Source of the DNA: Pontiella sp.
GTDB lineage: Bacteria > Verrucomicrobiota > Kiritimatiellia > Kiritimatiellales > Pontiellaceae
Length of the DNA: 64,000 nucleotides
Reading direction: 5' to 3'
Assembly (NCBI GenBank): GCA_050290185.1
Contig: JBNKHE010000003.1
Span: 32,001-96,000, forward strand
Part shown: positions 22,905 to 49,598 of the stretch, piece by piece
Layout of the letters: each line of letters opens with the position of its first letter
Numbering within the stretch: position 1 is the first letter of the stretch
Program-made: the position numbers and the translations under genes
Notes under the pieces: generated by a model
What the model was told of the DNA's origin: nothing
What the model saw: only the letters and a program-made list of their open reading frames with translations
Database searches by the model: none

Positions 22905-22940
22905 CGTTGAAGCGTTTAAACCGTTAAAGGTTGAAGTCGT
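22905..22940. repeat. Left repeat arm of four-helix-bundle gene 1 (CGTTRAA-type units, ~9 bp period)
   Basis: CGTTGAAG CGTTTAAAC CGTTAAAG GTTGAAGT CGT. Confidence 0.75.
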
Positions 22941-22949
22941 GGGTTTGTC

Positions 22950-23375
22950 ATGAAAGTGGAGCGGTTTGAGGAATTGGATGCATGGAAGGTAGCGCGTGAA
23001 TTGTCCAACTTGGTTTATGCGCTTGGTGGGGACTCCGGAATTTCAAGAGACTATGGGTTCAAGGACCAGATTCAACGGGCAGCGGTTTCTGTAATGAACA
23101 ATATTTCCGAGGGATTTGAGCGCGGGAGTAACAAAGATTATGCAAAGTTTTTATTTATTGCCCGAGGTTCTGTCGGAGAGGTTCGAAGCATGCTTTACCT
23201 TGCTCTGGACCAGAAATATATAACCCATGAGCAATTCAATGAGGCTTATAATCTGTGTGTTCGGGAGTCGCAGCTTTGCTGGGGCTTGATCAAGCACCTG
23301 CAGAAAACGAGTAATTGGAAGACGGGGGCGCAAGTAGTACTCATGATGCTGGTTCCTCTCCTCATGCGGGTTTAA
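22950..23375 (+). CDS. Four helix bundle protein 1 (23S rRNA IVP family)
   Basis: FEELDAWK, KDQIQRAAVSVMNNISEGFER, FLFIARGSVGEVRSML. Confidence 0.92.
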   Translation: MKVERFEELDAWKVARELSNLVYALGGDSGISRDYGFKDQIQRAAVSVMNNISEGFERGSNKDYAKFLFIARGSVGEVRSMLYLALDQKYITHEQFNEAYNLCVRESQLCWGLIKHLQKTSNWKTGAQVVLMMLVPLLMRV

Positions 23376-23456
23376 CGCATTCAACGATTTCAACGACTTT
23401 AACGAGCAACGCGATTTAACGGTTTTAACGAGCAAAGCGATTTAACGATTTAAACG
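23371..23456. repeat. Right repeat arm of four-helix-bundle gene 1 (TTYAACG units), inverted relative to the left arm
   Basis: TTTAACGCA TTCAACGAT TTCAACGAC TTTAACGAG ... TTTAACGGT TTTAACGAG ... TTTAACGAT TTAAACG. Confidence 0.9.
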
Positions 23457-23467
23457 GAGCGAATAGA

Positions 23468-25435
23468 ATGAGTGACAACACCTACAAAATCCAAGAAGAA
23501 GAGCTGATCCGTTCGGATATCAGCGAATACCTCAATCGGCATGAAACGAAGGACCTGCTGCGGCTGTTGACCTGCGGTTCCGTGGACGATGGAAAGTCGA
23601 CCTTGATCGGTCGCCTGTTGTACGACACCCACATGATCTACGAAGATCAGCTGGAAAAAGTCGCCAAGGATTCCAAGGTCTATGGCACCACCGGCGAGGA
23701 TTTCGATCCGGCCCTTTTGACCGACGGTTTGAAGGCCGAACGCGAACAGGGCATCACCATTGATGTGGCCTACCGCTATTTCTCGACCGATAAGCGCAAG
23801 TTCATCATTGCCGACTGTCCCGGCCACGAGCAGTACACCCGCAATATGGCCACCGGCGCATCGACCTGCAATCTGGCGGTTATCCTGATCGACGCGCGCT
23901 ACGGCGTGATCACCCAGACCAAGCGGCACAGCTTCATCTGCTCACTGCTGGGGATCAAGCACGTGGTGGTGGCCGTCAACAAGATGGATCTGGTCGACTG
24001 GTCCGAAGAGGTCTACGACAAAATCAAGGAAGACTACAACGCGTTTGTCTCCCGACTGAACTTTTCCGACATCCACTTTATCCCGATGTCCGCCCTCAAG
24101 GGCGACAACGTGGTTACGCACAGCGAAAATCTGGCGTGGTACGATGGGCCGACCTTCCTCCACCATATGGAAAGCGTGAACATTTCCACTGATCGCAACC
24201 TGATCGATATGCGCCTGCCGGTGCAGTATGTCCTGCGCCCGAATCTAGATTTCCGCGGGTTCAGCGGAACGCTGGCCTCCGGTGTGATCCGCAAGGGCGA
24301 CGAGGTGGCCAGCCTGCCATCGCGCCAGCAGTCGAAAATCAAGGCGATTTATGGCCCCGACGGCGAAATCGAAGAGGCGTTCGCGCCGCAGGCGATCACC
24401 GTCACCCTCGAAGATGAAATCGATGTTTCGCGCGGCAACATGCTTGTGCCCGTAAATAACATTCCGCACATTGGCAACGAGTTTGAAGCCATGGTGGTCT
24501 GGATGCACGAAGACGCCGCGCAGTCGGGTAGAAGCTACCTCGTCAAGCACACCTCCTCGATGGTGCCGGGCGTGCTGACAGACGTTCGCTACCGCGTCGA
24601 TGTCAATACCATGAAGCGCGACAAGAATACGCTGGAAACGGAAAAGGTCGATGCCTTGCAGCTCAATGAAATCGGACGCTGCCACATTACGTTGCACCGG
24701 CCAATCGCCTTCGATCCCTACGAACGCAACCGCGCAACGGGAGCGTTCATTATCGTGGACCGGTTGAGCAATATTACGGTGGGCGCCGGCATGATCGTTG
24801 ACCGTATTGTTTCCAAGCCCGGACATAAAAAGGCTCCGGTGAGCCAGAATATTGTCAGGAGCGACAGTCTGGTCAGCGCCGAAGACCGGCAGAACCTTCT
24901 CGGACAGAAGGGGTCCACGATCTGGCTGACCGGGTTGAGTGGATCCGGCAAGTCAACCATTGCCCAGAAGCTGGAAAAAGAGCTGATCGCGCAGGGGCAT
25001 CTCTGCTACATCCTTGATGGCGATAATGTGCGCCACGGCTTGAACCGCGATCTCGGATTCTCCATGGAGGACCGCAAGGAAAACATCCGTCGAATCGCCG
25101 AAGTCGCGGCGCTGATGAATGACGCCGGTGTGATTGTGATCACGTCCTTTATTTCCCCCTATATCTCCGATCGTTCCGCGGCGCGTGAAGTCATTGGCGA
25201 TGATTCTTTCATCGAGGTGTTTGTCGATACGCCGATCGAGGTCTGCGAGCAGCGCGATCCGAAGGGGCTATACAAAAAAGCCCGTTCCGGCGAGATCCAG
25301 CAGTTTACCGGTGTGAGTGATCCGTACGAAGCGCCGCAGGATGCTGAAATCGTTCTCCAGACAGAAAATGTCGCACCGGAAGAGGCCGCCGGCATGATCA
25401 TCGACGACCTCAAGGACCGTGGCATTGTTTCTTAG
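23468..25435 (+). CDS. cysNC: Bifunctional sulfate adenylyltransferase subunit 1 / APS kinase
   Basis: GSVDDGKST, EREQGITIDVAY; C-terminal WLTGLSGSGKST, LDGDNVRHGL. Confidence 0.97.
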   Translation: MSDNTYKIQEEELIRSDISEYLNRHETKDLLRLLTCGSVDDGKSTLIGRLLYDTHMIYEDQLEKVAKDSKVYGTTGEDFDPALLTDGLKAEREQGITIDVAYRYFSTDKRKFIIADCPGHEQYTRNMATGASTCNLAVILIDARYGVITQTKRHSFICSLLGIKHVVVAVNKMDLVDWSEEVYDKIKEDYNAFVSRLNFSDIHFIPMSALKGDNVVTHSENLAWYDGPTFLHHMESVNISTDRNLIDMRLPVQYVLRPNLDFRGFSGTLASGVIRKGDEVASLPSRQQSKIKAIYGPDGEIEEAFAPQAITVTLEDEIDVSRGNMLVPVNNIPHIGNEFEAMVVWMHEDAAQSGRSYLVKHTSSMVPGVLTDVRYRVDVNTMKRDKNTLETEKVDALQLNEIGRCHITLHRPIAFDPYERNRATGAFIIVDRLSNITVGAGMIVDRIVSKPGHKKAPVSQNIVRSDSLVSAEDRQNLLGQKGSTIWLTGLSGSGKSTIAQKLEKELIAQGHLCYILDGDNVRHGLNRDLGFSMEDRKENIRRIAEVAALMNDAGVIVITSFISPYISDRSAAREVIGDDSFIEVFVDTPIEVCEQRDPKGLYKKARSGEIQQFTGVSDPYEAPQDAEIVLQTENVAPEEAAGMIIDDLKDRGIVS

Positions 25436-25647
25436 TGCCTAGGACCTGGGGCTAGTGCGTAGTCCTTTGTCCGTAGTTATATATCCAGTGCATGGAACCG
25501 GTGCTGGAATGCATGAAGATAGCGTGCTTCAAGGATATGGGAGGTTGGGAAACGGGGTGCGGACCTACTCGGCAGTATAGCTTATACACGCCGGGCCGAA
25601 TTCGTTAGGCACTCCGGATCAGGCACCAGGAACGAAACGCTAGGCAC
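25433..25647 (+). pseudogene. Decayed four-helix-bundle cassette: inverted TAGTGCC/TAGGCAC repeat arms around a 5' gene fragment
   Basis: Arms at 25433-25477 and 25606-25647; ATG 25513 reads MKIACFKDM, then EVGKRGADL after a 1-nt shift. Confidence 0.6.
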
Positions 25648-25652
25648 AGCAG

Positions 25653-26849
25653 ATGAAAAAGATCATCGTAACAGGCGGGGCCGGTTTTATCGGGACGGCG
25701 ATATGCCTTCATTTGGTGCGTACCCTTGAATATCAGGTACTGAATGTTGACAAGCTGACCTATGCCGGCGTGCCGGAGTCTTTGAAGGAAATCGAAGACA
25801 ACCCGCTTTATCGCTTTGAAAAGGCAGATGTGTGCGACAAAGCGACGATCGGTGAGCTGTTTTCCGATTTTAAGCCGGATGCTGTGATGCACCTTGCTGC
25901 GGAGTCGCACGTTGACCGGTCGATCGACGGCCCCGCCGCTTTCATCGAAACCAATATCGTCGGCACCTACACCCTGCTGGAATGTGCGCGACAGTATTGG
26001 AACAGCCTGCCGGGAAAAGTAGCAGACTCCAAACTCCAAACCCCAAACCGCGAAGACTTCCGCTTCCTCCACATCTCGACGGATGAGGTTTATGGTTCGC
26101 TCGGCGCCGAAGGATTATTCAAGGAAACTACGGCTTACGCTCCGCGTTCCCCTTATTCGGCGAGCAAGGCTGCGAGTGATCATCTGGTGATGGCATGGTA
26201 CCACACCTACGGTTTACCTGTAATTATCACGAACTGCTCGAATAACTATGGTCCGCGCCAGTTTCCGGAAAAACTGATTCCTCTCGTCATTCTGAATGCG
26301 CTGGACGGGAAGCCGCTGCCTGTTTACGGCAAGGGCGATAACATCCGCGACTGGCTCTATGTCGAAGATCACGCCCGTGCTCTGGTTGAGGTGATGGAAA
26401 AGGGGCGGCCGGGTGAGACCTACAACATCGGCGGCCGCAATGAACGCACCAATCTCGAAATCGTTGAAACCATCTGCGATGTATTGGACGAGCTCCGGCC
26501 GTTAACGCCCGGGAATGATGAGTGTGCGTTGTCAAATGATGGGAGAATACCAAATCAACCATCAACCAACAACCATCAACCAAAGAAACAGATCAAATCC
26601 TATAAGGATTTGATCTGTTTCGTCGCCGACCGCCCGGGACACGACAAGCGTTACGCCATCGACGCCACGAAAATTGAAACGGAACTGGGCTGGAAGGCTC
26701 ATGAAACATTTGACGCAGGTATACGCCGGACCATCGAGTGGTACCTGGAAAACGAATCATGGTGGAAGCCCATACGGGAAGGCCGGTCTGCCGGCGAACG
26801 GCTGGGATATGGAAAATGCCGCGGCGCATCATGCGGTGATGGAGCTTGA
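25653..26849 (+). CDS. rfbB: dTDP-glucose 4,6-dehydratase
   Basis: [47 protein letters not shown]. Confidence 0.96.
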
Positions 26850-26876
26850 ACTCTTAATCGGAATGAAGGAGCGACA

Positions 26877-27929
26877 ATGAAAAAAGCATTGATTACAGGC
26901 ATTACGGGACAGGACGGTTCCTATTTGACGGAATTGTTGTTGGAGAAGGGCTACGAAGTGCACGGCATTATCCGGCGTGCGAGTTCGTTCAACACGGATC
27001 GCATCGATCACCTCTACAAGGACCGGCACGAGAGCGGCGTCAAGATGTTCCTGCACTATGGAGACCTGACCGATTCGAGCAATCTGAATCGCCTGGTGGA
27101 AAAGATCCAGCCAGCGGAAATCTACAACCTGGCCGCGCAGTCGCATGTGCAGGTTTCTTTCGAGGTGCCGGAATACACCGCCGAAGCCGATGCCATCGGC
27201 GTGTTGCGTCTGCTCGATGCCATTCGGGAAACCGGCATTGACAGCCGCTTCTATCAGGCCTCCACCTCCGAACTGTACGGCAAGGTGATGGAAGTTCCGC
27301 AAACCGAAACCACGCCGTTCTATCCGCGCTCGCCCTATGCCGTCGCCAAGCAATACGGTTTCTGGATCGTCAAAAACTACCGCGAGTCCTACGGCCTTCA
27401 TGCCAGCAACGGCATTCTCTTCAACCACGAATCCCCGCGCCGCGGCGAAACCTTTGTAACCCGCAAGATTACCATGGCCGTCGCCCGTATTTCGCGCGGC
27501 CTGCAGCAATGTCTCTACATGGGTAACATCAACGCCCTGCGCGACTGGGGTTTCGCCCCGGACTATGTCGAAATGATGTGGATGATGCTTCAGCAGGACA
27601 CGCCCGACGACTATGTGGTCGCCACGAACGAAATGCATACCGTCCGCGAGTTCATCGAAAAATCCTTCGGACACGTCGGGATCGAAATCGCGTGGGAAGG
27701 AGAGGGCGTTGATGAGGTCGGAAAAAACAAGGCCACCGGCGATATTGTCGTTCGCATGGATGAACGCTACTACCGCCCCTGCGAAGTCGAACAGCTCCTC
27801 GGCAACCCCGCCAAAGCCAAGCGCCAACTCGGCTGGGAGCCCAAGGTCAAGTTCGAGCAGCTCGTCCAGATCATGACCGACGGCGATCTGCGCCTGCTGG
27901 ATGGCGAATCCTACGAGGTAGGATTCTAG
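26877..27929 (+). CDS. gmd: GDP-mannose 4,6-dehydratase
   Basis: [37 protein letters not shown]. Confidence 0.98.
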
Positions 27930-27967
27930 TTGCTCGTTGTTTTGTTGATAGTTGATAGGGGGTTGCT
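27927..27967. repeat. Left arm of four-helix-bundle gene 2 (NNGTTGN heptamers)
   Basis: TAGTTGC TCGTTGT T TTGTTGA TAGTTGA ... GGTTGC. Confidence 0.75.
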
Positions 27968-27969
27968 CC

Positions 27970-28350
27970 ATGAAAACCTTTGAAGAACTGGAGTGCTACA
28001 AGCAGGCAAGGCAACTCCGCAAGGATGTGTCTCGATTCTGCAAAACCCTTCCTCGCGCAGAGGAGTACCGCTTGAAGGACCAGATTGTCCGGTCATCCCG
28101 TTCAGTAAGCGCGAACATTGCAGAAGGTTATGGTCGCCATCACCATCAAGAAAACATTCAGTTCTGCAGAACAGCACGTGGTTCGCTGACTGAAACACTG
28201 GATCATCTGAATGCTGCGTTGGATGAGGATTATTTATCTCAGGATGAATACACGGAAATGAGGGGACTACTGGAGAATGTTTGGAAAGTTCTCAACGGCT
28301 ACATTGCCTATCTTAAACGTTGCGCTTCCGAAGGTGTGCCGAACGCATAA
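27970..28350 (+). CDS. Four helix bundle protein 2
   Basis: MKTFEELECYK, EEYRLKDQIVRSSRSVSANIAEGYGR, ARGSLTETLDHL. Confidence 0.92.
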   Translation: MKTFEELECYKQARQLRKDVSRFCKTLPRAEEYRLKDQIVRSSRSVSANIAEGYGRHHHQENIQFCRTARGSLTETLDHLNAALDEDYLSQDEYTEMRGLLENVWKVLNGYIAYLKRCASEGVPNA

Positions 28351-28352
28351 TC

Positions 28353-28431
28353 CCAACAACCAGCAACTTTCACCCTGACAACAAGGAGCTTTCAAGTGGA
28401 TTCAGCAACCAGCAATCAACAACCAACAACT
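28353..28431. repeat. Right arm of four-helix-bundle gene 2 (CARCAAC heptamers), running into fcl
   Basis: CAACAAC CAGCAAC ... CAGCAAC CAGCAAT CAACAAC CAACAAC. Confidence 0.85.
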
Positions 28432-29613
28432 CCAGGCGCTCCGCGCCTGCCGCGCAATGCGCGGATCTACATCGCTGGTCACCGGGGCTTGGTCGGGTCC
28501 GGCATCTGGCGCGCGCTCGAGCGGCATGGCTACACCAACCTGATCGGCCGGTCGCGTGACGAACTGGATCTGACCAACCAGCAGGCGGTTGATGATTTTT
28601 TCGCGGCCGAAAAGCCGGAATATGTCGTCCTCGTTGCAGCCAAGGTGGGGGGTATTGTGGCCAACAGCACCTACCGCGCGCAGTTTCTCTATGAAAACCT
28701 GATGATCGAGGCCAATGTGATCCACGCGGCCTACAAACACGGCGTAAAGAAACTGCTGTTCCTCGGCTCCAGTTGCATCTATCCCAAGCTGGCGCCGCAG
28801 CCGCTGAAGGAGGAGCACCTGCTTACCGGGCCGTTGGAGCCGACCAACGAGCCGTACGCCATCGCCAAGATTGCCGGCATCCGGCTCTGCGATGCCTACA
28901 ACCGCCAGTACGGTACCAACTTCATCTCCGCCATGCCCACCAACATGTACGGCCCCGGCGACAACTACCACCCCCGAAACTCCCACGTCCTGCCCGCCTT
29001 CATCCGCCGGATGCATCTGGCCAAGGCACTTGAACAAGCAGACTTCGCCGAGCTCGCCCGCATCTACAAGCGCGAGTTGTTGAATGGCAGTTGTCCGTTG
29101 TCGGGGGAGGAAGGATCGTCAATCCAGCAACCCGGCAATCAACAACTTATCGATTGGCTAATCCAATCGGGCGTGACCCAAACAATCATCAACCAGCACT
29201 TGTCCGCCGGAGCCTTGGCGAAGGAGGAACCATCAACGAATCTCACCTGCTGGGGCAGCGGTTCACCGCTTCGGGAATTCCTCTACAGCGACGACCTCGC
29301 CGAAGCCTGCGTCTTTTTGCTCGAAAGCGTGGACTATTCCGATATGGCCTTCGAGGATGAATCCGGCACGGTACAGGCGCACGTCAATGTGGGTTCCGGC
29401 AGGGAAATCACCATCAAGGAATTGGCTGAAACCGTTCAGGAGGTCGTTGGTTACGAGGGCGAAATCGAATGGGACGCCTCCAAGCCTGATGGCACGCCCC
29501 GCAAGCTGATGGACTCCTCCCGCCTGATGGCGATGGGCTGGAAGCCGCAGGTCGATATGCGCGAAGGGATTGCCCGTGCCTACCAGGATTTCCTCGCCCG
29601 CTACACGACATAA
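28396..29613 (+). CDS. fcl: GDP-L-fucose synthase with repeat-derived insertions
   Basis: [51 protein letters not shown] before GTG. Confidence 0.95.
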
Positions 29614-29640
29614 CGCCTCCATTATTGGAAATATGCAAAG

Positions 29641-29678
29641 GCTTCCCGATTAATCTCGGGAAGCTTTTTTTTTTTTTT
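29641..29678 (+). terminator. Intrinsic terminator after fcl
   Basis: GCTTCCCGA-loop-TCGGGAAGC followed by T14. Confidence 0.9.
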
Positions 29679-30087
29679 GATCATGGCGCATCTCAGGTGC
29701 GCCTTTAACGTAGACGCAAAACGACGCGCATTCCAGCCGGGGCCCTCGTCGCTTTATTCAGACGGAAAGGATTCTTTTACCATCGCTCCGCTTTGAGGGA
29801 CCGGCTTCGCAGCAGGAAGGAGATAGAGCGTTTTTGTTAAAGAATAAACGGTGCTGTTCATGAACAGCCGCCCTTGCTCTAAGGAAACTTTGCGACTGGT
29901 TGTGAAAATGATCGCCTCCTGCCTTATCGCTTTGTTGTCCTCGGGAGGTTAATGTATGTGAAAAAAGTAATCATATAATCAAAGCATGGTAAAAAATACT
30001 AAAATAAGAGTAAGTATGTAATAAAAAACACAAGAAGGCTCTGCTAACCTCTTTAATGTTTCACCAATAAAATATCAAGGGAGGTAG

Positions 30088-30987: not shown

Positions 30988-31722
30988 ATGCTTGGTAAAC
31001 GGATTTTTCTCGCTGTTATTCTGTTGGTGGCATTGCTTTCGTCACCGGTGCTGTATGCGGACCTCCTCGCGGGTTGGGACGTGAATGGAGTCGATGTGTC
31101 CGGCGGTTCCGGAATTGATGACGCGGCCTTTCCCTATACGAAAAATGCAACGGAGCTAGGCGTAAATATCTCGGGCGGTGCGCTGGCGCTGGGCTTCGAT
31201 GGGCCCTCATCCACGGCCAATACGTATGGATTCAGGTTTTTGGCAGGCACGCACCAGACCTCGCTCGGCGATGCCATTGTTTCCAGCCACTACATCGAAT
31301 TCACCGTTGCGGCTTCGGCCGGATACCAGTTCGATTTGGCCTCCATCGAAATGAACGGGGAATCGGGTGACAGCGGGCCGGACAACATTGCACTCATGTC
31401 CGACGTGGATGGATTTCTGGCGGGGAATGAGATTGCGTCTTTAACCGGTTTGCAGGGCGTCACGGGTGGATGGGATACCGATGCAAGCGGGTGGGGCGCT
31501 CCCATCGATTTGAGTGGATCGCAATACCAGGGTCTCGCGGCGGTCACCTTCCGGATCTATGGCTGGAACAGCAGCGGGGCGACATCCTCCGGCATCCGCA
31601 ATCTCTCGGGAAATGATTTGGTCGTCAACGGAACGGTGAAAGCCATCCCCGAACCCGCCGTCATCGCGCTTATCAGCATGTTCGGTGTCGGTGTTTTGAT
31701 TACTCGGAGGGTAAAGAAATAG
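30988..31722 (+). CDS. PEP-CTERM sorting domain protein
   Basis: Signal peptide; IPEP + TM helix + RRVKK tail. Confidence 0.92.
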   Translation: MLGKRIFLAVILLVALLSSPVLYADLLAGWDVNGVDVSGGSGIDDAAFPYTKNATELGVNISGGALALGFDGPSSTANTYGFRFLAGTHQTSLGDAIVSSHYIEFTVAASAGYQFDLASIEMNGESGDSGPDNIALMSDVDGFLAGNEIASLTGLQGVTGGWDTDASGWGAPIDLSGSQYQGLAAVTFRIYGWNSSGATSSGIRNLSGNDLVVNGTVKAIPEPAVIALISMFGVGVLITRRVKK

Positions 31723-31724
31723 AC

Positions 31725-31951
31725 ATCTCGCAGAGCCACCCGAGCCAGCCTCACTTCGTGTCTCTGTTTTCTCTCGTTCGAGTCTGAGCCTGATGGCTCT
31801 TCCCTCAGAGTCGAAGACTGTGTGAGATAAAAATACGGAAGAAAGGTTCACGCAGAGCCAGCAGAGTCAGCCGAGAAGAAGACCTCTGTTATCTCTGTTG
31901 ACTCTGTGTGAGATAAAAAACGGAAGAAGAGTTCACGCAGAGCCAGCAGAG
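31725..31951. repeat. Composite repeat region: alternating CAGAG/CTCTG arms, a ~49 bp direct repeat and a 40 bp palindromic unit
   Basis: ctgtgtgagataaaaa..cggaagaa..gttcacgcagagccagcagag at 31818-31866 and 31904-31951; unit 31779-31818 recurs inverted at 55748-55787. Confidence 0.8.
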
Positions 31952-31967
31952 AAGGGAAGTAACTAAA

Positions 31968-32189
31968 ATGATATGTCGAGAAATTGAAATTGAAGATGAA
32001 TTGCATAAACATCTTGAGCGTATGGCTGGTCAGCATTGCCGTAGTATAGAGAAGGAAGTTCAGGTTTTACTCAGCCTTCTCATCCAGGATTCGGATTATC
32101 TGGATCATCTGGAACGCAAGATTCACCGCCGGAGTGCCGGAGAAGAATGGCATGACTCAGATTATCAAGGGTTGTTGGTGCGTTTATAG
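31968..32189 (+). CDS. Small FitA/Arc-like ribbon-helix-helix protein
   Basis: IEIEDELHKHLERMAGQHCRSIEKEVQVLL resembles the RHH pattern. Confidence 0.55.
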   Translation: MICREIEIEDELHKHLERMAGQHCRSIEKEVQVLLSLLIQDSDYLDHLERKIHRRSAGEEWHDSDYQGLLVRL

Positions 32190-32210: not shown

Positions 32211-32282
32211 AGCGATTAGCGAATGGCTTTTGGCATATAGTTTTTAGCCAATAGCCAATAGCCAATAGCCAATAGCCAATAG
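32211..32282. repeat. Left arm of four-helix-bundle gene 3, including (TAGCCAA)x5
   Basis: Five perfect copies at 32245-32279, preceded by GATTAGC GAATGGC TTTTGGC. Confidence 0.92.
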
Positions 32283-32303: not shown

Positions 32304-32669
32304 ATGCGTGACTATACAAAAATTAAAGCCTGGGCCTTGGCAGACGATTTTGCTGTCGAGGTGTATCGGCGTACAGCCAGTTTCCCGTCCGACGAAAAAT
32401 ATGCACTGACTTCACAGGTCCGCCGGGCTGCGTATTCTGTAGCTGCCAACTTAGCGGAGGGGGCAGGACGGAGGACAAAAAAGGATTTCGTTCGCTTTCT
32501 TGATATGGCGCTGGGGTCGGCCAATGAGGCGACATACTTTATTCATTTATCCCACCGGCTCGCATATCTTGATTCTGGCTCGTTTACTGTTTTAAGGGAT
32601 CAGGCCGCATCGGTTAGCAGATGCTTGTCATCCTATATTCGAGCTGTTGAGAAAGATGTTAACCAATAA
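32304..32669 (+). CDS. Four helix bundle protein 3
   Basis: DYTKIKAW, FPSDEKYALTSQVRRAAYSVAANLAEGAGR, FLDMALGSANE. Confidence 0.93.
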   Translation: MRDYTKIKAWALADDFAVEVYRRTASFPSDEKYALTSQVRRAAYSVAANLAEGAGRRTKKDFVRFLDMALGSANEATYFIHLSHRLAYLDSGSFTVLRDQAASVSRCLSSYIRAVEKDVNQ

Positions 32670-32774
32670 CTATTAACTAATAGCTCATAGCCTTTAGCCC
32701 GAAGCTAATAGCCACCAGCTAACAGCCATCAGCTAATTACCACCAGCTAACATCTAACAGCCACCGGCCCATAG
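32660..32774. repeat. Right arm of four-helix-bundle gene 3 (NNNYAGC heptamers, ~14 degenerate units)
   Basis: TAATAGC TCATAGC CTTTAGC CCGAAGC TAATAGC CACCAGC TAACAGC CATCAGC ... Confidence 0.88.
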
Positions 32775-32986: not shown

Positions 32987-33294
32987 CGCAAATGAAGCTA
33001 TCAGCCAACCACCGTTAGCTAACAGCTTCCGGTATCTCTGTGTGCGATCTTCGGTTCAGAAAACCCAACTGCTAAAGGCTATCAGCTAATGGCTATGCAT
33101 AACTCCTAAAACTTAACACTTAAAACCGCGAACTCCGCTCGCTTTCAACGGATTCAACGGTAATCAGTCCCGCTAATGGCTAAAAGCTAGGACTCTAAAA
33201 TATCATTTCATAGTAGCGTCTACTTTTTTATTGTCTCATTTTAAATATGTGGTAACCATTGTTAATGGAATCTACTGTTTAATCTAGAGATTTA

Positions 33295-41937: not shown

Positions 41938-42296
41938 AACTTATGTATGTCCTGACATCGCTAATGATAAGATAGTAGTCGCGAAGATGCAGTCTTGTTG
42001 CATTATTGTCGGGGACCATTCGGTGGGTTTGATTGCTTTTGGCAGAGACAGGGTTGGCTATGGAGCTAGGTGCACGTCCCTTTATTCATAGTTGTACACG
42101 GTAACACATCCACATCGGGAAGCGGCTTGCATAGAAAATATATGCCAACGCTAGTGTTATCCGTTGATATTCGATACTAGAGCAGAAGGGTATGGGATCA
42201 CTTTGTTGAGTCTAGTCAATAGCGAGTGTTAGTTAGGTATAGGCGAATGCGTATGAGTGAGATTCTTGCAGATAAGGGAATTCTTGAGTCTTGATT

Positions 42297-43208
42297 ATGA
42301 AATTTTGGATTGTTACTCCCAGTTATAACCAACTGGAATGGCTTAAGTTGTGTGTCGCTTCCGTGGCCGATCAGGCGTCGGAAGATCGAGAGGGTGGAGC
42401 AGGGTGTATCGAGGTGCATCACCATATTCAGGACGCCCTGTCATCAGATGGCACTCCGGAATGGTTGGCAGAGCATGTTGCCCAAAAACCACCAACCATG
42501 AACTATCAATTGACCTTTGTTAGCGAAGCTGACGGAGGCATGTACGATGCTATCAACCGGGGTTGGAAGTGCGCACCGGAGGGGGTGGATGTGATTGCAC
42601 ATTTGAACTGCGATGAGCAGTATCTGCCTGGTGCTTTGCAAACCATCGCAACGTTCATGTCGAAGCATACCAAGGCAGATGTGGTGCTGGCCGATATGAT
42701 TGTGACCGATCGTGATGGGATGTATATATGCCATCGTCGTAGCCTTAAACCGTATCCGATCGTTTCAAAATATACCTGTGCGGGCTTCACTGCCGCCACC
42801 TTTCAGCGATCTTCGGTAACGAAATCCAAAAGAGTGTTTTTTGATACATCTTGGAAAAATGTTGGGGACATGGTTTGGTATAATTCATTACATAGCACTA
42901 ATTGTAGCTTTCGAGTCTGCAACGAAGTTGTCTCCCTGTTTACGGATACCGGAGATAACTTAAATTGGACGGATGACGGAGCTCGAGAGAAACAGCGGTA
43001 TATGAATGCTTTTCTAAGAGGAAGTCCCTTTGGGAGTATAGCCTTTTCAAAGCTGAATGGGTTTCGACGGTGGCTTAAGGAATTTTATACCCATGCGCCA
43101 TCCAGTTATTCAATATATGTTCAGGGAGTGGGCGAACGAGTATATAGAGAGATACTCCATCCTACAGGCCTATGGCATAAAAAACGAGCTAAGCTGGGTT
43201 CCGAATAG
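42297..43208 (+). CDS. Glycosyltransferase family 2
   Basis: IVTPSYNQ, DGGMYDAINRG, HLNCDEQYLPG. Confidence 0.88.
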   Translation: MKFWIVTPSYNQLEWLKLCVASVADQASEDREGGAGCIEVHHHIQDALSSDGTPEWLAEHVAQKPPTMNYQLTFVSEADGGMYDAINRGWKCAPEGVDVIAHLNCDEQYLPGALQTIATFMSKHTKADVVLADMIVTDRDGMYICHRRSLKPYPIVSKYTCAGFTAATFQRSSVTKSKRVFFDTSWKNVGDMVWYNSLHSTNCSFRVCNEVVSLFTDTGDNLNWTDDGAREKQRYMNAFLRGSPFGSIAFSKLNGFRRWLKEFYTHAPSSYSIYVQGVGERVYREILHPTGLWHKKRAKLGSE

Positions 43209-43300
43209 AATTCCAAGATTGTTGAGACGGAATGGAAGATATGGTTTTAGTTTCCCCAGTAGAATGCTTTATGTGGGATTTTCTGTAACGAGATATAAGC

Positions 43301-43993
43301 ATGAAAGAAAAGAATATCGAGTTGGGCTGCTTTTTCCCTCCTTACAATAGAAGAACCTGTTGTCCTCCTGGGAGGTTGAGGCCTCAACAGGAGAACTACA
43401 GACCCAATATTATCGTTGCGTCATTTCCGAGATCCGGAACCCATCTTTTAATAGATTTAATCCTTAATAATTTTAAGCCGTACAGGAGGAGTCCACTAAT
43501 CGTGGATGTTGATCATTTTATTAATGACAAGGACCGTGTCATGCGTGTGTTGGAATGCGGTGGTTATGTGTTAAAGACCCATTTTCCTGTGAATCCCGAC
43601 GTGGTGCTTTCGGCTTCGGCACAGGACAATATGAAGTTGTTGATTGAGCGTGCGATTATCTTTCGTCCTATACGCGACAAGCATTCAGTATTGAAGTCGG
43701 CGGGTAAAATGTGGCCGTCTCTCAAAGAAACCGAGATCTTAGGTCTTATGGATTCCTTTCAGTTGTTTTGGGAATCGCATAATACAATTGACTTTAAGTT
43801 CATCGACATTACGGGAAATTATTCAAGTGTTGTGGCCCGGATATCGCGATATCTTGGCATTCCAGCACCGAAGAGAATTACTGGTCCATATAGCAAGGAC
43901 AGAGTGTATTTCATCTTGCTAACAAAGCTCCTTACCCGTGTGTTAGGGCGCTTTTCTCCTCTTATAAACACAACTATCGGCTTTGGGAAATAG
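43301..43993 (+). CDS. Sulfotransferase-like protein
   Basis: IIVASFPRSGTHLL, LKTH. Confidence 0.65.
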   Translation: MKEKNIELGCFFPPYNRRTCCPPGRLRPQQENYRPNIIVASFPRSGTHLLIDLILNNFKPYRRSPLIVDVDHFINDKDRVMRVLECGGYVLKTHFPVNPDVVLSASAQDNMKLLIERAIIFRPIRDKHSVLKSAGKMWPSLKETEILGLMDSFQLFWESHNTIDFKFIDITGNYSSVVARISRYLGIPAPKRITGPYSKDRVYFILLTKLLTRVLGRFSPLINTTIGFGK

Positions 43994-44008
43994 TCTGGAA
44001 TTTGTCCT

Positions 44009-45319
44009 GTGAAAATCATTCAGGCTCACAACTATTACCTGCATGCTGGTGGCGAGGATGCGGTGGTTGCCGCGGAGCGGCAAATGCTTGAGATTCAAGG
44101 GAATATCGTTGTTCCTTACTATAAGAGTAATGAAGATATTGCGGCTTCTAGCAATAAGCTAATAGCTGTTGGCCAACTGCTAAAGGCTTCCCTTAGGACT
44201 ATCTGGAACCACCAGACGTACCGAGAGTTTCAGAAGCTACTTCAAAGTGAAAAGCCGGATGTGGTGCATTGCCACAACACCTTTCCGCTGATCTCTCCGT
44301 CGATCTACTGGGCCTGCGCGAAGGAAAAAGTTCCCGTTGTCCAAACTCTCCACAACTATAGACTCTTGTGCTTAAACGCTTTTTTGTTTCGAACCACGAA
44401 GAGTCACGAAAATAAGAACCTCTGCGACTCTGCGGCTTTGAGCGAGAATAAATCTGGTATATGCGAATTGTGCGTTAATAAATCCTTCAAGTGGCCCGGT
44501 ATCCGGTATCGCTGTTATCGCGGATCGTTGCCGGGGTCGCTCGTCGTTACGCTGATGCTTTTTGTCCACAAGCTGCGGGGAACTTGGACCAAAAAGGTAA
44601 CGGCCTACATTGCCCTGACCGAGTTTCAAAAACGGAAAATGGTGGAAGAGGGACTTCCGGGGGATAAAATTTTGGTGAAATCCAACTTCATCGACGATTC
44701 ATCGATGAAAGAGCCATTAGCCTCCAATGACTCTGTGCCCTCTGTGGTGGATAAACCGTACTGCATATTTGTGGGAAGGTTGAGCCCTGAAAAGGGGTGC
44801 GATGTACTGCTAAAAGCGTGGGCGCGTTTCGGGGAAATGCCAATAGCTAACGATCATCAGCCCCAGCTGCTTATCGCTGGAGACGGTCCCGAACGCGAAT
44901 CTCTCGAAAAGCTGTCTGCCGACCTCTGTCTGACGACCTCTGTCACATTTCTCGGCAAACAGTCAAAGGGAAGTGTACTTTCTTTAATGCGCAACGCGCA
45001 GTTTCTCGCGCTTCCCTCCGTTTGGTACGAAGGGTTTCCAATGACGATTGTGGAAGCATTTTCGTGCGGAACGCCTGTTGTTGCCTCCAATGACGGAGGA
45101 ATGCTGGATGTGATTGACGAAGGAAAAACCGGTTTGCTTTTTTCCATGGGCGATGTAAATGCGCTGGCGAACACGCTCCTATGGGCGTTTGAACATCTCG
45201 AAGAGATGGCATCAATGAGTGCTGCCGCTCACAAGGATTTTAGCGAGAAGTTTTCGTCGGACATCAACTATGGAGAGCTCATAGGGATCTATGAACGGGC
45301 GTTGGGCATCAGGTGTTAG
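44009..45319 (+). CDS. Glycosyltransferase family 4 with repeat-derived insertions
   Basis: HNYY..GGED, HNTFPLISPS, VGRLSPEKG, YEGFPMTIVEAF. Confidence 0.92.
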   Translation: MKIIQAHNYYLHAGGEDAVVAAERQMLEIQGNIVVPYYKSNEDIAASSNKLIAVGQLLKASLRTIWNHQTYREFQKLLQSEKPDVVHCHNTFPLISPSIYWACAKEKVPVVQTLHNYRLLCLNAFLFRTTKSHENKNLCDSAALSENKSGICELCVNKSFKWPGIRYRCYRGSLPGSLVVTLMLFVHKLRGTWTKKVTAYIALTEFQKRKMVEEGLPGDKILVKSNFIDDSSMKEPLASNDSVPSVVDKPYCIFVGRLSPEKGCDVLLKAWARFGEMPIANDHQPQLLIAGDGPERESLEKLSADLCLTTSVTFLGKQSKGSVLSLMRNAQFLALPSVWYEGFPMTIVEAFSCGTPVVASNDGGMLDVIDEGKTGLLFSMGDVNALANTLLWAFEHLEEMASMSAAAHKDFSEKFSSDINYGELIGIYERALGIRC

Positions 45320-45329
45320 GATTTCGGTC

Positions 45330-47753
45330 ATGACTGTACTTTTCTTGTATATCATCACATTGTGCTCATTCACCTTCTATGGCGTGGTGGGCGAGGACAA
45401 GACATGGTTGCTGGCGCCTTTGTTTCTTTTCAGCTATGCGGCAATTACGATTGCCTTGCTGAAAAGAGCATCCTCCTTCGCTCAAGCTTCAGCGGACAGA
45501 TTTGGCATGGGGCATGGCAATGAGAAGCTAAGAGCTAATAGCCAACAGCCAACAGCCGGAGCATTGCTTATCCTTTTTCTCCTATGGGGAATAGCAATGA
45601 TCCCCCAGGCAACGGTGCCTTTCGAGTCAAAGCTGGTGATGCTGTTCATCGGCGGGGTGGTGGGGGCTTATCTCGTATGGGGCGGGGAACTGACGACGTT
45701 CAAGGACAACCGGCTTCTGTTGGGCTTCCTGATCTTTGTCGTGATGGGACTGGCGCTGTATGGCCTGATCATCTATTTCCGTTGCCCGGACAGGATCCTA
45801 TGGACGGAACGGTATGCCGACTATCCCGGTCGCTTGGCGTCGACCTATATCTGCCCGAATCACTTTGCCCATTTGATGCAGATGCTGATGCCGTTCTGCG
45901 CGGCGTTGCTGTTCATTCCCCAGACGGGCATCTTTCTGCGCCTGCTGGCGGGATATAGTTTGCTGGTGTTTCTTCCGCCCTTGTTCCTGACCGAATCGCG
46001 CGCAGGGTGGCTGGGTTCGATTGTCGGGGTGGGGGTCGTAGCCTGCCTGATGGCGCTGCGCCGCAGCAAAAAGTTGTTCCTGCTCCTGGTGATCTTCGTC
46101 CCGTTGTGTTCAACGCTCATCCTGTTCGCGGGATGGCGGTTTTCCGAAACCTTCCACCGCCGGGTCACACCGGTCGTGGAATTCCTGAAGTATCAGGGTG
46201 AAGAGGGCGTTGGCAGCGAGTCGAAGGATTTCCGGCCGCAGACCTGGATGGATACGATCGATATGGTCAAGGAGGCCCCGCTGATCGGTTTCGGACCGGG
46301 GAACTACCGGTATACTTTTCCAGAGCACCGCAATCGCTTCAAAGGACGCCAGGTTGTTACCGGCCACCCGCACAATGAATATCTGGAACTGATCGCGGAT
46401 TATGGGCTGATTGGATTTGCCCTGTTTGCCCTGGCCTGGATCTATGGTTTGATCCGGATCCTGATTGCGTCGTTGAAGTCGGAGGAAGTGCGCCATGCCT
46501 TCATCGGCTTTGCCTTTGTCGGCACCGCCGCTGGAACGATGGTCCACTCCTTCTTCGACTTCGAGATGCATGTGTATCCCAACGCGCTTGTTTTCGCGTT
46601 GCTGGCCGCCTTGGCCTGGGGACCGTTGGCCGCGCAGAAGGCAAAAGGCGTCAGGCGTCGGGCCCGGGACTCCAGAGACCATGAACCGCAAACGGCCAAC
46701 TCCAAACTTCACGCTGCATTTTCACACAGAGATAGCAGAGATAACGGAGGGCAGAAGTCAGCAGCCAGCTCCGAACTGTTGGTTCAAAATGATTCCCCAA
46801 CAATCAGCAACGTTCAACGTTCAACATTTAACGTGCAGCGTTTAGCAACATGGCTCCTTGCCATCGGCTACCTGTCGTTAACCGTTCTCTGTCTTCAGAC
46901 CATGTCGTCCGCCTTCATCCGTGCTATGGCGGATAAGAAGGTGGAGACATTGGTCACTCGCCATGCACCCAGCTCCAAGCTCCATGCACAGCATCTTTAC
47001 GAGCTGTCAGCTCGGATAGATGCTGCGAACTGGCGGGCGTACAAGGGGATGGCGGATTTACTCTCTAATCAGCGTTACTATTCGCTCGATATGGAGGAGA
47101 AGGTCCAGCTGGCCGAGGAGGAGCGTGGTTGGTACGAGAAGACCTATGTGCAGAATCCGAAGGATCCGGAGCTCATCTCTGCCTACGGAAAATGTCTCAT
47201 TTTTCTCGGAAATGCCGAGAGCATGGGACATAGGGCAGGGAGTCGGGTGGAAGAAATATCACGCAGCGATAGCGGAGACAGCGGAGAGGATAATGCAAAA
47301 CAAACGCTCTCTGTTAACGCTGTGCGAGATAATGATTCATTTACACCTGCAGAACTAATCGATCATGGACTGGAGCTGCTCCGCGAAGCGTGCAGCTACC
47401 GCCCATTCAACGATGTCTACTGGTGGACGCTGGGCGTGGAGTTGCGTAAGCTGGGTCGCTACGAAGAAGCGTTGGACGTATTTAAAAAGGCGCAGTCGAT
47501 CCGCCGTACGCCAACGACGGTCGCCAATATAAAGTGGATCGAGAAGCAGATAGCCCTTCGGCTTCACTCAGGGCAGGCAGGGGACGGGAGAAAGGACGCA
47601 GGAGCCAGGGAGCAGGAATCTGAGCCGGCAGAAAGGGAACCTCAAACCGCAAACCCCAAACCGCAAACCTCAACGAACTTCGTCCTCCCCGACCCGACCA
47701 ACGCAGCGGCTGATCCGGGGTTGATGAAGCTGCTTGACCAAATGGAAGAATAG
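45330..47753 (+). CDS. O-antigen ligase family protein with C-terminal TPR-like region and repeat-derived insertions
   Basis: PNHFA, TESRAGW, GFGPGNY, HPHNEYLELIADYGLIG, HSFFDF. Confidence 0.88.
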   Translation: MTVLFLYIITLCSFTFYGVVGEDKTWLLAPLFLFSYAAITIALLKRASSFAQASADRFGMGHGNEKLRANSQQPTAGALLILFLLWGIAMIPQATVPFESKLVMLFIGGVVGAYLVWGGELTTFKDNRLLLGFLIFVVMGLALYGLIIYFRCPDRILWTERYADYPGRLASTYICPNHFAHLMQMLMPFCAALLFIPQTGIFLRLLAGYSLLVFLPPLFLTESRAGWLGSIVGVGVVACLMALRRSKKLFLLLVIFVPLCSTLILFAGWRFSETFHRRVTPVVEFLKYQGEEGVGSESKDFRPQTWMDTIDMVKEAPLIGFGPGNYRYTFPEHRNRFKGRQVVTGHPHNEYLELIADYGLIGFALFALAWIYGLIRILIASLKSEEVRHAFIGFAFVGTAAGTMVHSFFDFEMHVYPNALVFALLAALAWGPLAAQKAKGVRRRARDSRDHEPQTANSKLHAAFSHRDSRDNGGQKSAASSELLVQNDSPTISNVQRSTFNVQRLATWLLAIGYLSLTVLCLQTMSSAFIRAMADKKVETLVTRHAPSSKLHAQHLYELSARIDAANWRAYKGMADLLSNQRYYSLDMEEKVQLAEEERGWYEKTYVQNPKDPELISAYGKCLIFLGNAESMGHRAGSRVEEISRSDSGDSGEDNAKQTLSVNAVRDNDSFTPAELIDHGLELLREACSYRPFNDVYWWTLGVELRKLGRYEEALDVFKKAQSIRRTPTTVANIKWIEKQIALRLHSGQAGDGRKDAGAREQESEPAEREPQTANPKPQTSTNFVLPDPTNAAADPGLMKLLDQMEE

Positions 47754-47947
47754 GAAGCTTACCTCAGATCTTGCAGAACAACGTAGATAAGATCTCCCGC
47801 GGAGATAGCGGCTTCCGGCTCATGGAGGCTACACCCTAGAGGGAGCAAGCAACGACCTTTAAAGCGATACTAAGTACCATGTTTTTACTACCTCTTATCT
47901 TCATCGCTGACTCCGTTGACTTTGTGTGATATTTATCCGAAATGTTA

Positions 47948-49051
47948 ATGCACTTTACCATAATCACCCCATCCTTCAACCAGCTCGGCTATCTCAAACG
48001 GTGTGTGGCTTCAGTCGCTGATCAAGTGACTGAAAGCATGGAACATGGAGCGGGGCGCATAGAGGTGTGCCACCATGTTCAGGACGGTGGTTCGACGGAT
48101 GGTGCCCGCGAATGGCTGGAGTGTTATGCGAACGAAGTCCGCGAGCAAAATACAGAGGACACAGGACAGAGGACGGAGGACTGCTCCCCTAATGCCGAAT
48201 GTCTAGCGCCTGGTGCCTACACTTTCACGTATGCAAGTGCACCGGATAACGGGATGTATGATGCGATCAACAAAGGTGTGGCCTTTGCGTTAAATCGGTC
48301 TACGACCTCGTTGAATTCGTTAAAGCAGGCTTCGCCTTCGTTAAATCCGTGCCCGAACGATTTCAACGTCTTGAACCTTCAACATTCAACGAAACCTCGC
48401 GACAGCGTGATCGCCTGGCTGAACTGCGACGAACAGTATCTGCCAGGAACCCTGCATAAGGTGGCGGTTTTTTTTGAGCAGCATCCGGAGGTGGATATTG
48501 TGTTCGGTGGCATGCTGATGGTGGATGAGGCTGGAAAGCTGCTGGCTTGCCGCAAGGCCATGCCGATGCGGCGGTTGTTCCTTGAGGCGTCTTATTTATA
48601 TAACTATTCCTGTGCGATGTTTTTTCGTCGATCGGCGTGGGAGAAGTTGGGCGGATTCGATTCAGCCTATCGCAATGCCGGGGATGAAGAGCTGGTGCGA
48701 CGAGCGATGAAGCTGGGGATGAAGACTGCTGTAGTGGATGGTTATCTTTCGGTCTTTACCTATGCAGGGCACAACCTAAGTTCGGAGGGGACGTCCGCCG
48801 TTCAGGAGCATGAGCGACTGAAACAATCAGAATCCCGGGCAAGCCGGTGGCTCCGTTTACCGATCAATCTGGCCCGGCTGGCGGAAAAGTGGATGCGCGG
48901 AGGACTACATGAGCGCGGGGCTTTAGTCTTTGAAATCTACACGGACCCATTGGAAGCGCGCTCCCTTTTTGAAGAGGATAACCCAAGTTGCCACTGGCCT
49001 GGTGAGGTGAAGCCGTATCTGCTCAATCATAGATTGAGCGATAGGCGTTAG
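47948..49051 (+). CDS. Glycosyltransferase family 2 (paralog of 42297) with repeat-derived insertions
   Basis: IITPSFNQ, DGGSTDG, GMYDAINKG, WLNCDEQYLPG. Confidence 0.88.
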   Translation: MHFTIITPSFNQLGYLKRCVASVADQVTESMEHGAGRIEVCHHVQDGGSTDGAREWLECYANEVREQNTEDTGQRTEDCSPNAECLAPGAYTFTYASAPDNGMYDAINKGVAFALNRSTTSLNSLKQASPSLNPCPNDFNVLNLQHSTKPRDSVIAWLNCDEQYLPGTLHKVAVFFEQHPEVDIVFGGMLMVDEAGKLLACRKAMPMRRLFLEASYLYNYSCAMFFRRSAWEKLGGFDSAYRNAGDEELVRRAMKLGMKTAVVDGYLSVFTYAGHNLSSEGTSAVQEHERLKQSESRASRWLRLPINLARLAEKWMRGGLHERGALVFEIYTDPLEARSLFEEDNPSCHWPGEVKPYLLNHRLSDRR

Positions 49052-49067
49052 GTATAGGTGTTGGGTC
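49042..49067. repeat. Left arm of four-helix-bundle gene 4 (TRGGYRT heptamers)
   Basis: TAGGCGT TAGGTA TAGGTGT TGGGTC. Confidence 0.7.
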
Positions 49068-49128
49068 GCGGATGACAGATGGAAAACGTTGAGTCTTTAG
49101 AGTGATATTATCTTGAGCGGGATTTGTG

Positions 49129-49500
49129 ATGGGCGAGCAAGGTTTTAGGCAACTGCGTGTTTGGCAGGAGGCAAAGGCATTGGCTGTCGACGTATACTTG
49201 TTAATCCGAAAATCACTTGCCCTGGACAAGGATTGGGGCCTGAAGGATCAGATGCAGCGGTCTGCCGTATCTATTCCTTCCAATATCGCCGAGGGTGATG
49301 CCCGAAAATCCAACAAGGATTCTATTCGCTTCTTTCACATTGCTTTGGGATCTGCAGCAGAGCTAGCTACTCAGTTGGAGATAGCACTTGAACTTGGGTT
49401 CATCGATGAACTGCCATGCCATGGAATCATTAATCGACTAGATCAGTTGTCGAAAAGCCTTGGCGCTCTCGTCAAGGGGCGGCAACAGCCCAATACCTAA
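49129..49500 (+). CDS. Four helix bundle protein 4
   Basis: FRQLRVWQ, DWGLKDQMQRSAVSIPSNIAEG, IALGSAAELATQLEIA. Confidence 0.93.
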   Translation: MGEQGFRQLRVWQEAKALAVDVYLLIRKSLALDKDWGLKDQMQRSAVSIPSNIAEGDARKSNKDSIRFFHIALGSAAELATQLEIALELGFIDELPCHGIINRLDQLSKSLGALVKGRQQPNT

Positions 49501-49598
49501 AACCTACATATAATGTCAAAATCCAAACACCGAGCACCTCTTAATACCCAATACACTATGCCTGTATCCCAATACCCAATACCCAATACCCAATGTCC
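49489..49598. repeat. Right arm of four-helix-bundle gene 4 (CCCAATA heptamers), running into the next gene
   Basis: CCCAATA x3 perfect at 49568-49588 plus degenerate copies. Confidence 0.88.

Follow-up and report, generated by a model that had tools for sequence, protein, structure and literature searches.

Four-helix-bundle genes between cognate periodic arms point to an undescribed kind of gene-plus-repeat element

Bacterial genomes can carry repeats with a seven-nucleotide period, among them the short tandemly repeated repetitive (STRR) sequences of cyanobacteria. Such heptamer repeats, the proteins of the four-helix-bundle (FHB) family, and the intervening sequences (IVSs) of ribosomal RNA (rRNA) genes have each been described separately, as far as the available text of the papers concerned goes (PMC4990558, PMC4692102, PMC4679880, PMC3337134, PMC10053308, 10.1101/2023.10.23.563531). 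The Coxiella 23S rRNA IVS has terminal inverted repeats and GACAGAT heptamers just before its open reading frame (ORF) and is cut by RNase III, while the family member Xcc0516 forms a homopentameric ring (available part of PMC4990558). Avd, the accessory protein of diversity-generating retroelements (DGRs), reads flipped-out RNA bases in crevices between protomers, according to the accessible portion of 10.1101/2023.10.23.563531. In Xanthomonas, the heptamer GGGAATC is found genome-wide and is abundant, often convergent (70 convergent pairs), and unexplained in the sections available of PMC4692102. A literature search outside subscription journals and supplements found no link between the FHB family and flanking periodic arms beyond the Coxiella remark. 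Here, we analyze a stretch of 64,000 nucleotides from a Pontiella species (contig JBNKHE010000003.1, positions 32,001 to 96,000; "the window"), in which four FHB genes, FHB1 to FHB4, each lie between repeat arms with a motif of their own, an arrangement that we call a cassette and that points to an undescribed kind of gene-plus-repeat element.

The original prediction had placed four FHB genes in the window, and ORFs were present at all four positions, each encoding a protein that passes both the TIGR02436 and PF05635 cut-offs in a profile search (Table 1). These four are among six family matches in the window genome, whose assembly is 95.5% complete, and FHB2 is only 26-31% identical to the other three proteins. 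The neighboring genes agree with the proposal that FHB1 splits cysD from cysNC and FHB2 splits gmd from fcl; FHB3 is flanked by two unnamed ORFs, and its clade occupies the gmd-fcl junction in two relatives with the same motif. Periodic repeats of a gene-specific motif were likewise found at all four genes, with a best period of 9 nt for FHB1 and 7 nt for the other three cassettes, and a ribosome-binding-like GGAG lies between the 3' arm of cassette 1 and cysN.

The arms had also been suggested to be able to loop the gene out of its transcript. In minimum free energy (MFE) RNA folds, the two arms of FHB1, FHB2, and FHB4 did pair with each other across the gene, with 37, 18, and 54 long-range pairs expected, and close a stem around the ORF, while FHB3 folded locally instead. 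Relative to shuffled flanks, the arm duplexes had z-scores of -3.0, -1.3, -4.3, and -1.9 for FHB1 to FHB4, so the FHB2 and FHB4 arms taken singly only weakly exceed chance. The description of the FHB3 arms as mostly direct needed amending: near the gene, the TAGCCAA run does fold locally, but it does so with an additional G-rich arm upstream, giving a G-C-gene-C layout, and the downstream arm is of the C-rich type.

Arms of this kind belong specifically to the FHB family. We collected 196 full-length, non-redundant FHB genes with their flanks (81 from relatives, 4 from the window genome, 86 from GTDB genomes of many phyla, and 25 from viral contigs) and aligned each upstream flank to the reverse complement of the downstream flank, counting a score of at least 24 as inverted arms; other genes of the same loci, from crude gene calls, served as controls. 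The 81 genes from relatives, each with 100-nt flanks, were taken from the 150 matches listed of about 300, with a further 50 regions inspected by eye and kept outside the statistics. The cross-phylum sample comes from the best 80 of 602 matches and is skewed to the S[IV]PSNIAE subfamily, because the broad family alignment yielded no usable search pattern. Inverted arms surrounded 65/81 FHB genes in relatives compared to 1/217 controls, 62/86 compared to 3/194 across phyla, and 20/25 compared to 2/82 on viral contigs; in the window, the values were 3/4 for FHB genes and 0/31 for other genes. The expectation that arms would be more frequent around FHB genes than around other genes was therefore borne out. 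The usual layout was a G-rich arm, the gene, and a C-rich arm that is the reverse complement of the first, with 3-6 degenerate units per arm, and period 7 was the best period in 207/305 periodic flanks. A scan for other cargo between such arms, limited by the crude gene calls, gave 9 candidates among 3454 other ORFs and no clear G-arm/C-arm cassette on inspection. One FHB clade of 168-169 amino acids (L357, L364, L368, and L370) has a clear arm that is mostly confined to the 5' side, and the gene downstream of it has, in our reading, a cas4-like start.

The motif in the arms tracks the protein clade, a relation that the original prediction had put forward as a check. In a tree of 83 genes, each clade held its own motif, and between different sites flank similarity was correlated with protein identity (Mantel r 0.43, with 0.076 as the top of 2000 permutations). 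Cassettes at different sites shared a motif in 21/47 pairs with more than 70% identity versus about 1% of pairs below 40%, while 0/70 pairs below 50% identity did so at the same site. Over all groups (188 genes), the share of pairs with a common motif rose from about 1% below 50% identity to 24% at 60-70% and 72% above 70%. The association could also be used for prediction: when inverted AATCGG pairs approximately 400 bp apart were fetched, 3/3 enclosed an FHB gene of a previously unseen clade.

Orthologous junctions were found empty, filled, swapped, and decayed. Among 21 orthologous cysD-cysN loci, nine have an empty TAATG stop-start overlap, eight are filled by two clades, three have a short spacer, and one holds a deletion remnant that carries a third motif. 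Among 28 gmd-fcl loci, 16 are filled by four clades, seven are empty, one has a deletion remnant, two have gene-less hairpins, and two have other neighbors; three of the four clades are those of FHB1, FHB2, and FHB3, each with its own motif. The comparison of empty and filled sites that had been proposed as a check thus gave both states at both junctions and, together with the tracking of motif and protein identity between sites, indicates that an FHB gene and its cognate arms form a unit. Cassettes enter stop-start junctions of host operons, usually in the host direction, and decay to internally deleted forms, gene-less hairpins, and single arms. The polysaccharide-operon setting holds for the window and is only local, since other insertion sites include gltB-gltD, the gene before ruvB, accB-accC, and carA-carB, besides the rmlB/rmlA/rmlC junctions. 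As a separate observation, most cysD-cysN sites with a broken TAATG overlap have a short hairpin over the cysD stop codon, whichever clade fills them (the window, 22872-22903; L234, L236, L238, L239, L243, L246, L247, L251, and L252).

A similar picture emerged in Xanthomonas, where 38/41 genomes have an FHB gene; genomes within a genus are not independent, so the results here are patterns rather than statistics. A genus-wide copy lies at accB-accC between GGGAATC-type arms and in one genome is identical to Xcc0516 over the aligned residues; by this sequence match, the solved structure of Xcc0516 is now paired with its putative cognate motif, GGGAATC. The dN/dS (ratio of nonsynonymous to synonymous substitution rates) at this fixed site is 0.11-0.12. 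A second clade at carA-carB has GGGACC arms. GGGACC doublets number 86-162 in 4/4 known carriers (the single FHB gene of six genomes lying outside this inspection), whereas 26 of the 37 other genomes have 0-3, nine have 6-43, and two have 112 and 114. GGGAWT counts were lowest in four genomes whose accB-accC gene is missing, broken, or partial.

Arms also occur in Xanthomonas without the gene. A gene-less GGGACC hairpin sits at accB-accC in four genomes, and in genome G056 a whole GGGACC hairpin (L394:165-300) adds 99 nt, or 33 codons, in frame just past the start codon of a host gene, at a site that is empty in 5/5 comparison genomes; no target duplication was evident at this insertion. We take the host gene to resemble a D-Ala-D-Ala ligase, judging by its motif. 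Two other sites carry different arm motifs in different genomes around a similar spacer; at one of them, GATTCCC forms the C-rich arm in five genomes and GGTCCCC in one, with a partly similar spacer. The Xanthomonas hairpins (L388-L399; genomes G056 and G058) often start right past a stop codon and end right before an ATG, with no obvious Shine-Dalgarno sequence.

Repeats without their gene are plentiful in the window genome as well. Arrays with a lag of 7 number 128, compared to 16-28 at lags 4, 5, 8, 10, 11, and 13, and 29 of the 128 fall in the window, where the original prediction had missed the in-frame arrays of neighboring genes. Many are in frame inside rmlB, fcl, the O-antigen-ligase-like gene, and glycosyltransferase genes (Table 1), and the motif type in a given loop of RmlB or Fcl varies among orthologues, some of which have no array there. 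Perfect, recent expansions also occur, with runs of GAGGCGT and ATACGCA exceeding 10 units. The fcl gene (28990-29250) has an insertion of ~80 amino acids with several arrays that is present or absent among relatives regardless of whether gmd-fcl is filled.

Structural comparison places FHB2 in the Xcc0516/Avd fold, in line with the resemblance to Avd described for the family. An AlphaFold model of FHB2 (pLDDT 94.8) matched Xcc0516 (2GSC) with a Z of 21.3 and a root-mean-square deviation (rmsd) of 0.9, BT0352 with a Z of 16.2, and Avd with a VIA Z of about 15 (rmsd 1.5-2.0 over 106-112 residues, about 10% identity), and all three outscored unrelated bundles. Both 2GSC and 2RLD contain 5 chains, and we assume that the window FHB proteins likewise form pentameric rings. 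Seven polar residues are near-invariant (Q41, R44, S48, N52, E55, R59, and E78 in FHB4 numbering), and the FHB protein is, judged by sequence comparison, under purifying selection.

As to whether the arms act in RNA or in DNA, the G-then-C layout is identical when read from either strand, and sense and antisense arm duplexes are equally stable. G-U and A-C mismatches in arm duplexes numbered 107/113, 120/99, and 32/34, giving no G-U excess with loose or strict alignment, and the G-U covariation that had been put forward as a check was not enriched over A-C. On viral contigs, 13/20 scorable cassettes lie opposite to both neighbors. In several viral-contig cassettes that run antisense to the surrounding genes (L174, L176, L179, L181, L182, L192, and L200, about 3900-4000), the word TAnnTTTG, which we take to be promoter-like, separates the start codon from the 5' arm, and this arm may therefore be outside the gene's own transcript.

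RNA processing was assessed in two raw RNA-seq runs covering one homologous, short-armed cassette, Xanthomonas accB-FHB-accC, from fragmented short-read libraries in one condition. Read depth over the FHB gene was 1530-2055, compared to 1245-2140 over accB and 1240-1350 at the start of accC. In these two runs, there was no pile-up of ends at either arm and no true splice product over accB-FHB-accC; in raw reads, the apparent skips have at most 29 letters on their short side and unrelated letters between, and they therefore come from other hairpin loci. Five of the 196 cassettes are nested in host genes, with 0 stops in the host (-1) frame versus a mean of 7.75, which means that these inserts are translated through. 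The hosts are three Eco57I-type methyltransferase genes (two seen beside pglZ), one N6/N4 methylase gene, and one DnaE-type polymerase gene.

Table 1. Coordinates of cassette features, orphan arrays, and nested cassettes. Positions are those of the window unless a locus (L) is named.
Feature	Position	Strand	Basis
Hairpin over cysD stop codon, 5' edge of cassette 1	22872..22903	+	sequence, fold
Cassette 1 5' arm, CGTTRAA type, ~9-nt period	22905..22940	+	sequence, fold
FHB1 gene, PF05635/TIGR02436, 141 aa, between cysD and cysNC	22950..23375	+	ORF and profile scores
Cassette 1 3' arm, TTYAACG, period 9, overlaps FHB1 stop	23371..23456	+	sequence, periodicity
Orphan in-frame array, CCAAACT type, rmlB loop; orthologues have other motifs or none	26014..26062	+	
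Orphan in-frame array, CAACCAT type, second rmlB loop	26542..26598	+	
Cassette 2 5' arm, GTTGNTR, period 7, begins at gmd stop	27929..27959	+	sequence, periodicity, site comparison
FHB2 gene, 126 aa, gmd-fcl junction	27970..28350	+	profile scores, AlphaFold model
Cassette 2 3' arm, CAACMAN, period 7, runs in frame into fcl N-terminus (first codons)	28353..28431	+	
Hairpin upstream of FHB3, G-rich arm (32212-32234) folding with the TAGCCAA x5 run (32245-32282)	32212..32282	+	sequence, fold
FHB3 gene, 121 aa	32304..32669	+	profile scores
Cassette 3 3' arm, GCTAAYA/GCCAYCA, periods 7 and 14, C-rich type	about 32660..32765	+	
Gene-less cluster of arm pieces, three types (FHB3 type, TAAAACY, TTCAACG)	33000..33190	+	
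Six orphan in-frame arrays, different motifs (45516, 46629, 46794, 46948, 47575, 47624), O-antigen-ligase-like gene	45516..47686	+	
Orphan in-frame array, GACAGAG type, GT2 glycosyltransferase gene	48138..48191	+	
Cassette 4 5' arm, TRGGYRT, overlaps GT2 stop	49041..49066	+	sequence, fold
FHB4 gene, 123 aa, between GT2 and GT4 glycosyltransferase genes	49129..49500	+	profile scores
Cassette 4 3' arm, CCCAATA, period 7, from last FHB4 codons in frame into GT4 N-terminus	49489..49598	+	
Orphan in-frame array of FHB3 type followed by one of FHB2 type, GT4 gene	50164..50265	+	
Orphan in-frame arrays (54011, 54142, 56408, 56532, 56673, 57094, 57338), genes 53091-55706 and 56049-57845	54011..57385	+	
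Nested cassette, -1 frame open across whole FHB gene	L171:655-1020		
Nested cassette, -1 frame open across whole FHB gene	L177:4000-4357		
Nested cassette, -1 frame open across whole FHB gene	L193:4000-4366		
Nested cassette, -1 frame open across whole FHB gene	L009:1480-1848		
Nested cassette, -1 frame open across whole FHB gene	L188:3970-4380		

Two further family matches lie elsewhere in the window genome. A fifth FHB gene (G000:C1:93822-94283, + strand) has clear GCGTGAG/CTCACG-type arms, and its motif is among the genome's commonest orphan arrays. The sixth match (G000:C6:232298-233029, - strand) is a fusion, its FHB domain being followed by a longer C-terminal part that closes with a CxxC...C..C zinc-finger-like motif; a short hairpin lies upstream of it, and a stretch of flanking sequence is duplicated. 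The window also contains a duplicated stretch of ~50 nt (31720-31960) with GCAGAG/CTCTG-type words and hairpin potential, possibly another repeat family, located between a gene whose end is at 31722 and a 72-amino-acid ORF without a Pfam match (31971-32189).

Of the three mechanisms in the original prediction, a mobile cassette fits these data best, and a ring protein that reads periodic sites is plausible in view of the Avd fold. We put at about even the chance that the cassettes behave like REPIN-RAYT systems in which a non-catalytic ring takes the place of the transposase, the ring recognizing its own arms and helping cassettes and arm copies to spread while a host enzyme supplies the chemistry. 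Both binding and mobility are what we infer. The FHB ring would bind periodic arms of its cognate motif, probably in single-stranded or hairpin form, and might read them in the crevices between ring subunits as Avd does; it would then serve as a trans-acting factor through which cassettes and arm copies lacking the gene are inserted or rewritten, with the chemistry of insertion coming from the host enzyme. Insertion between coupled genes would be tolerated because the arms would place the upstream stop beside the downstream start and in many cases provide a ribosome-binding site. A RAYT was considered as the mover and rejected, as heptamer arrays were absent from 12 Y1_Tnp loci of the same genomes.

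Several observations weigh against such ring-assisted spread. No recent move was found, the closest cassettes at different sites being 82% identical in DNA, so moves must be old or rare, and neither fixed ends nor a target duplication were seen in the cassette comparison. The FHB2 model gave no match to a catalytic fold, its best structural matches being Xcc0516, BT0352, and Avd only. Broken copies make up 9/101 in relatives. In Xanthomonas, the two genomes with 114 and 112 GGGACC doublets (G056 and G074) carry no FHB gene, and, apart from the four genomes with the lowest counts, two genomes without the accB-accC gene keep 305 and 548 GGGAWT doublets (548 in G056). In the window genome, only 11/128 arrays have a close inverted partner (null 3/640), so singlets dominate, unlike in REPINs; the genome also has many AATCGG, TAAAACY, and GAAACTT arrays and none of those clades among its six FHB genes. 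No convincing residue-to-motif code emerged among 164 convergent pairs (largest single-column excess 0.13), a comparison of the AAGCAC clade with array counts across 41 relatives gave data too sparse for a verdict, and co-inheritance alone can make the motif follow the clade without binding.

The FHB ring could instead be a domesticated RNA-binding regulator, a reading we regard as possible if somewhat doubtful. TRAP is known to bind repeats on mRNA. A ring of this sort would bind periodic mRNA sites, autoregulate via its own arms, and move only by ordinary transfer or recombination; the G-C-gene-C pairings would act as switches, and orphan arrays would be targets tuning translational coupling or stability. 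Sites that change clade and motif freely, arrays that persist without the gene, and the lack of a sense-strand wobble bias sit poorly with regulation, as does the promoter-like word between the 5' arm and start in several viral-contig cassettes, and the in-frame arrays at one protein loop, which differ in motif between orthologues, look like tolerated insertions. Its attractions are the purifying selection on a stationary gene, the seven near-invariant polar residues, arms that abut stop and start codons, the strong transcription of other arm loci, the conserved and variable positions within repeat units, and the Avd fold with its multi-protomer reading of flipped-out RNA bases (accessible portion of 10.1101/2023.10.23.563531). 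In addition, TAACTGA repeats just upstream of start codons, TAACTGA being an FHB arm in L087, are read as regulator sites in the available text of PMC4679880. Removal of the gene from the operon transcript as an mRNA intervening sequence, its arm stem cut by RNase III or spliced as in 23S rRNA, now appears very unlikely: although the FHB1, FHB2, and FHB4 arms pair across the gene and the Coxiella IVS offers a precedent in its terminal inverted repeats, heptamers, and RNase III cutting (available part of PMC4990558), the accB-FHB-accC RNA-seq lacks a depth drop, end pile-up, or splice product, the five nested cassettes are translated through with their host frames open, and there is no G-U bias. 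This part of the original prediction is accordingly not supported.

It is improbable, in our estimation, that FHB is a passenger, with slippage making the heptamer arms, template switching making them complementary, and the motif following the gene by co-inheritance as it rides along. Slippage is the explanation cited in the sections available of PMC4692102, and it would suit the perfect GAGGCGT and ATACGCA runs, the arrays without cognate genes, and the lack of a residue-to-motif code; however, it leaves unexplained why nearly all FHB genes and almost no others have arms, how a whole hairpin arose at a site without a seed, and why motif arrays are most abundant where the clade is present. Least probable of all, in our view, is an orphan Avd retroelement, in which the ring and a host reverse transcriptase (RT) copy cassette or arm RNA into new sites. 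The homology to Avd, which the DGR RT requires, and the overlap of the 3' arm with the gene end, much as the avd end pairs with a spacer in DGR RNA, are set against the strand symmetry of the cassettes and the absence of an adjacent RT at the loci inspected. RT was rejected as the partner when 2/5 genomes checked, G056 and the FHB-richest genome G029 (23 FHB matches, 97% complete), had no RVT_1 match; the window genome has RT only as fragments on tiny contigs.

Returning to ring-assisted spread, a wider version that we offer tentatively is that FHB rings are sequence-specific readers and initiators of writing, each clade driving the insertion or genome-wide rewriting of its 7-nt motif although it brings neither a transposase nor a reverse transcriptase. 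If so, they might be the source of heptamer repeats in many phyla, of many in-frame insertions, and of ORF-bearing rRNA IVSs, and would constitute a natural library of rings of differing specificity. The findings bring together two open questions, what the widespread IVP/S23p family does and where bacterial heptamer repeats come from, in a testable protein-motif pairing, and the window offers four such pairs side by side as internal specificity controls. Should the ring read or spread its motif, the cassettes would represent a new class of element that shapes protein loops and operon junctions in many phyla; should it be an RNA regulator, the weaker outcome would still assign targets to a very large orphan family.

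Among known systems, the IVSs of 23S rRNA genes (Coxiella, Leptospira; S23p/PF05635) share the protein family and the terminal inverted repeats around the ORF (available part of PMC4990558). They differ in lying inside an rRNA gene, whereas the window cassettes adjoin protein-coding genes, and the cassettes here comprise many clades with motifs of their own, an ORF under apparent purifying selection, and one tested case without detectable excision; the rRNA IVS appears to represent one of the insertion sites of a wider element. DGR Avd (4DWL, 8UB7) shares the fold, the pentameric relatives, and the precedent for RNA binding, but the window FHB genes have no adjoining RT, template, or variable repeat and are flanked by housekeeping and polysaccharide genes, and periodic arms are not part of the DGR description in the accessible portion of 10.1101/2023.10.23.563531. 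Unlike insertion sequences or miniature inverted-repeat transposable elements, FHB cassettes show no near-identical copies, fixed ends, or target-site duplication.

REPIN-RAYT systems are another parallel. They too have a mostly stationary gene flanked by cognate inverted repeats that co-vary with it, gene-less hairpin doublets elsewhere, several gene-repeat groups per genome, and decay to singlets (available text of PMC3337134); gene-less doublets of FHB arms are clear in Xanthomonas and scarcer in the window genome (11/128 arrays paired). FHB is, however, all-helical, with PF05635 matches only, rather than a Y1/HUH transposase, its arms are tandem 7-9-nt units rather than imperfect palindromes with a fixed end tetramer, and singlets and in-frame copies are common. 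The described heptamer repeats (GGGAATC in Xanthomonas and GGGGA(C/T)T in Nostoc, PMC4692102; TAACTGA in Beggiatoaceae, PMC4679880) share period 7, intergenic and in-frame positions, and convergent pairs with the arms studied here, as far as the available sections go, and those sections leave their origin open and contain no mention of "helix bundle" or "S23". Both GGGAATC and TAACTGA occur as FHB arms in our loci. The present analysis contributes the exchange of four clades at a single site, the orphan arrays that lie in frame within genes, the pairing of Xcc0516 with GGGAATC, and RNA tests with a negative outcome, and together the comparisons point to the FHB gene and its arms as a kind of gene-plus-repeat element distinct from each of them.

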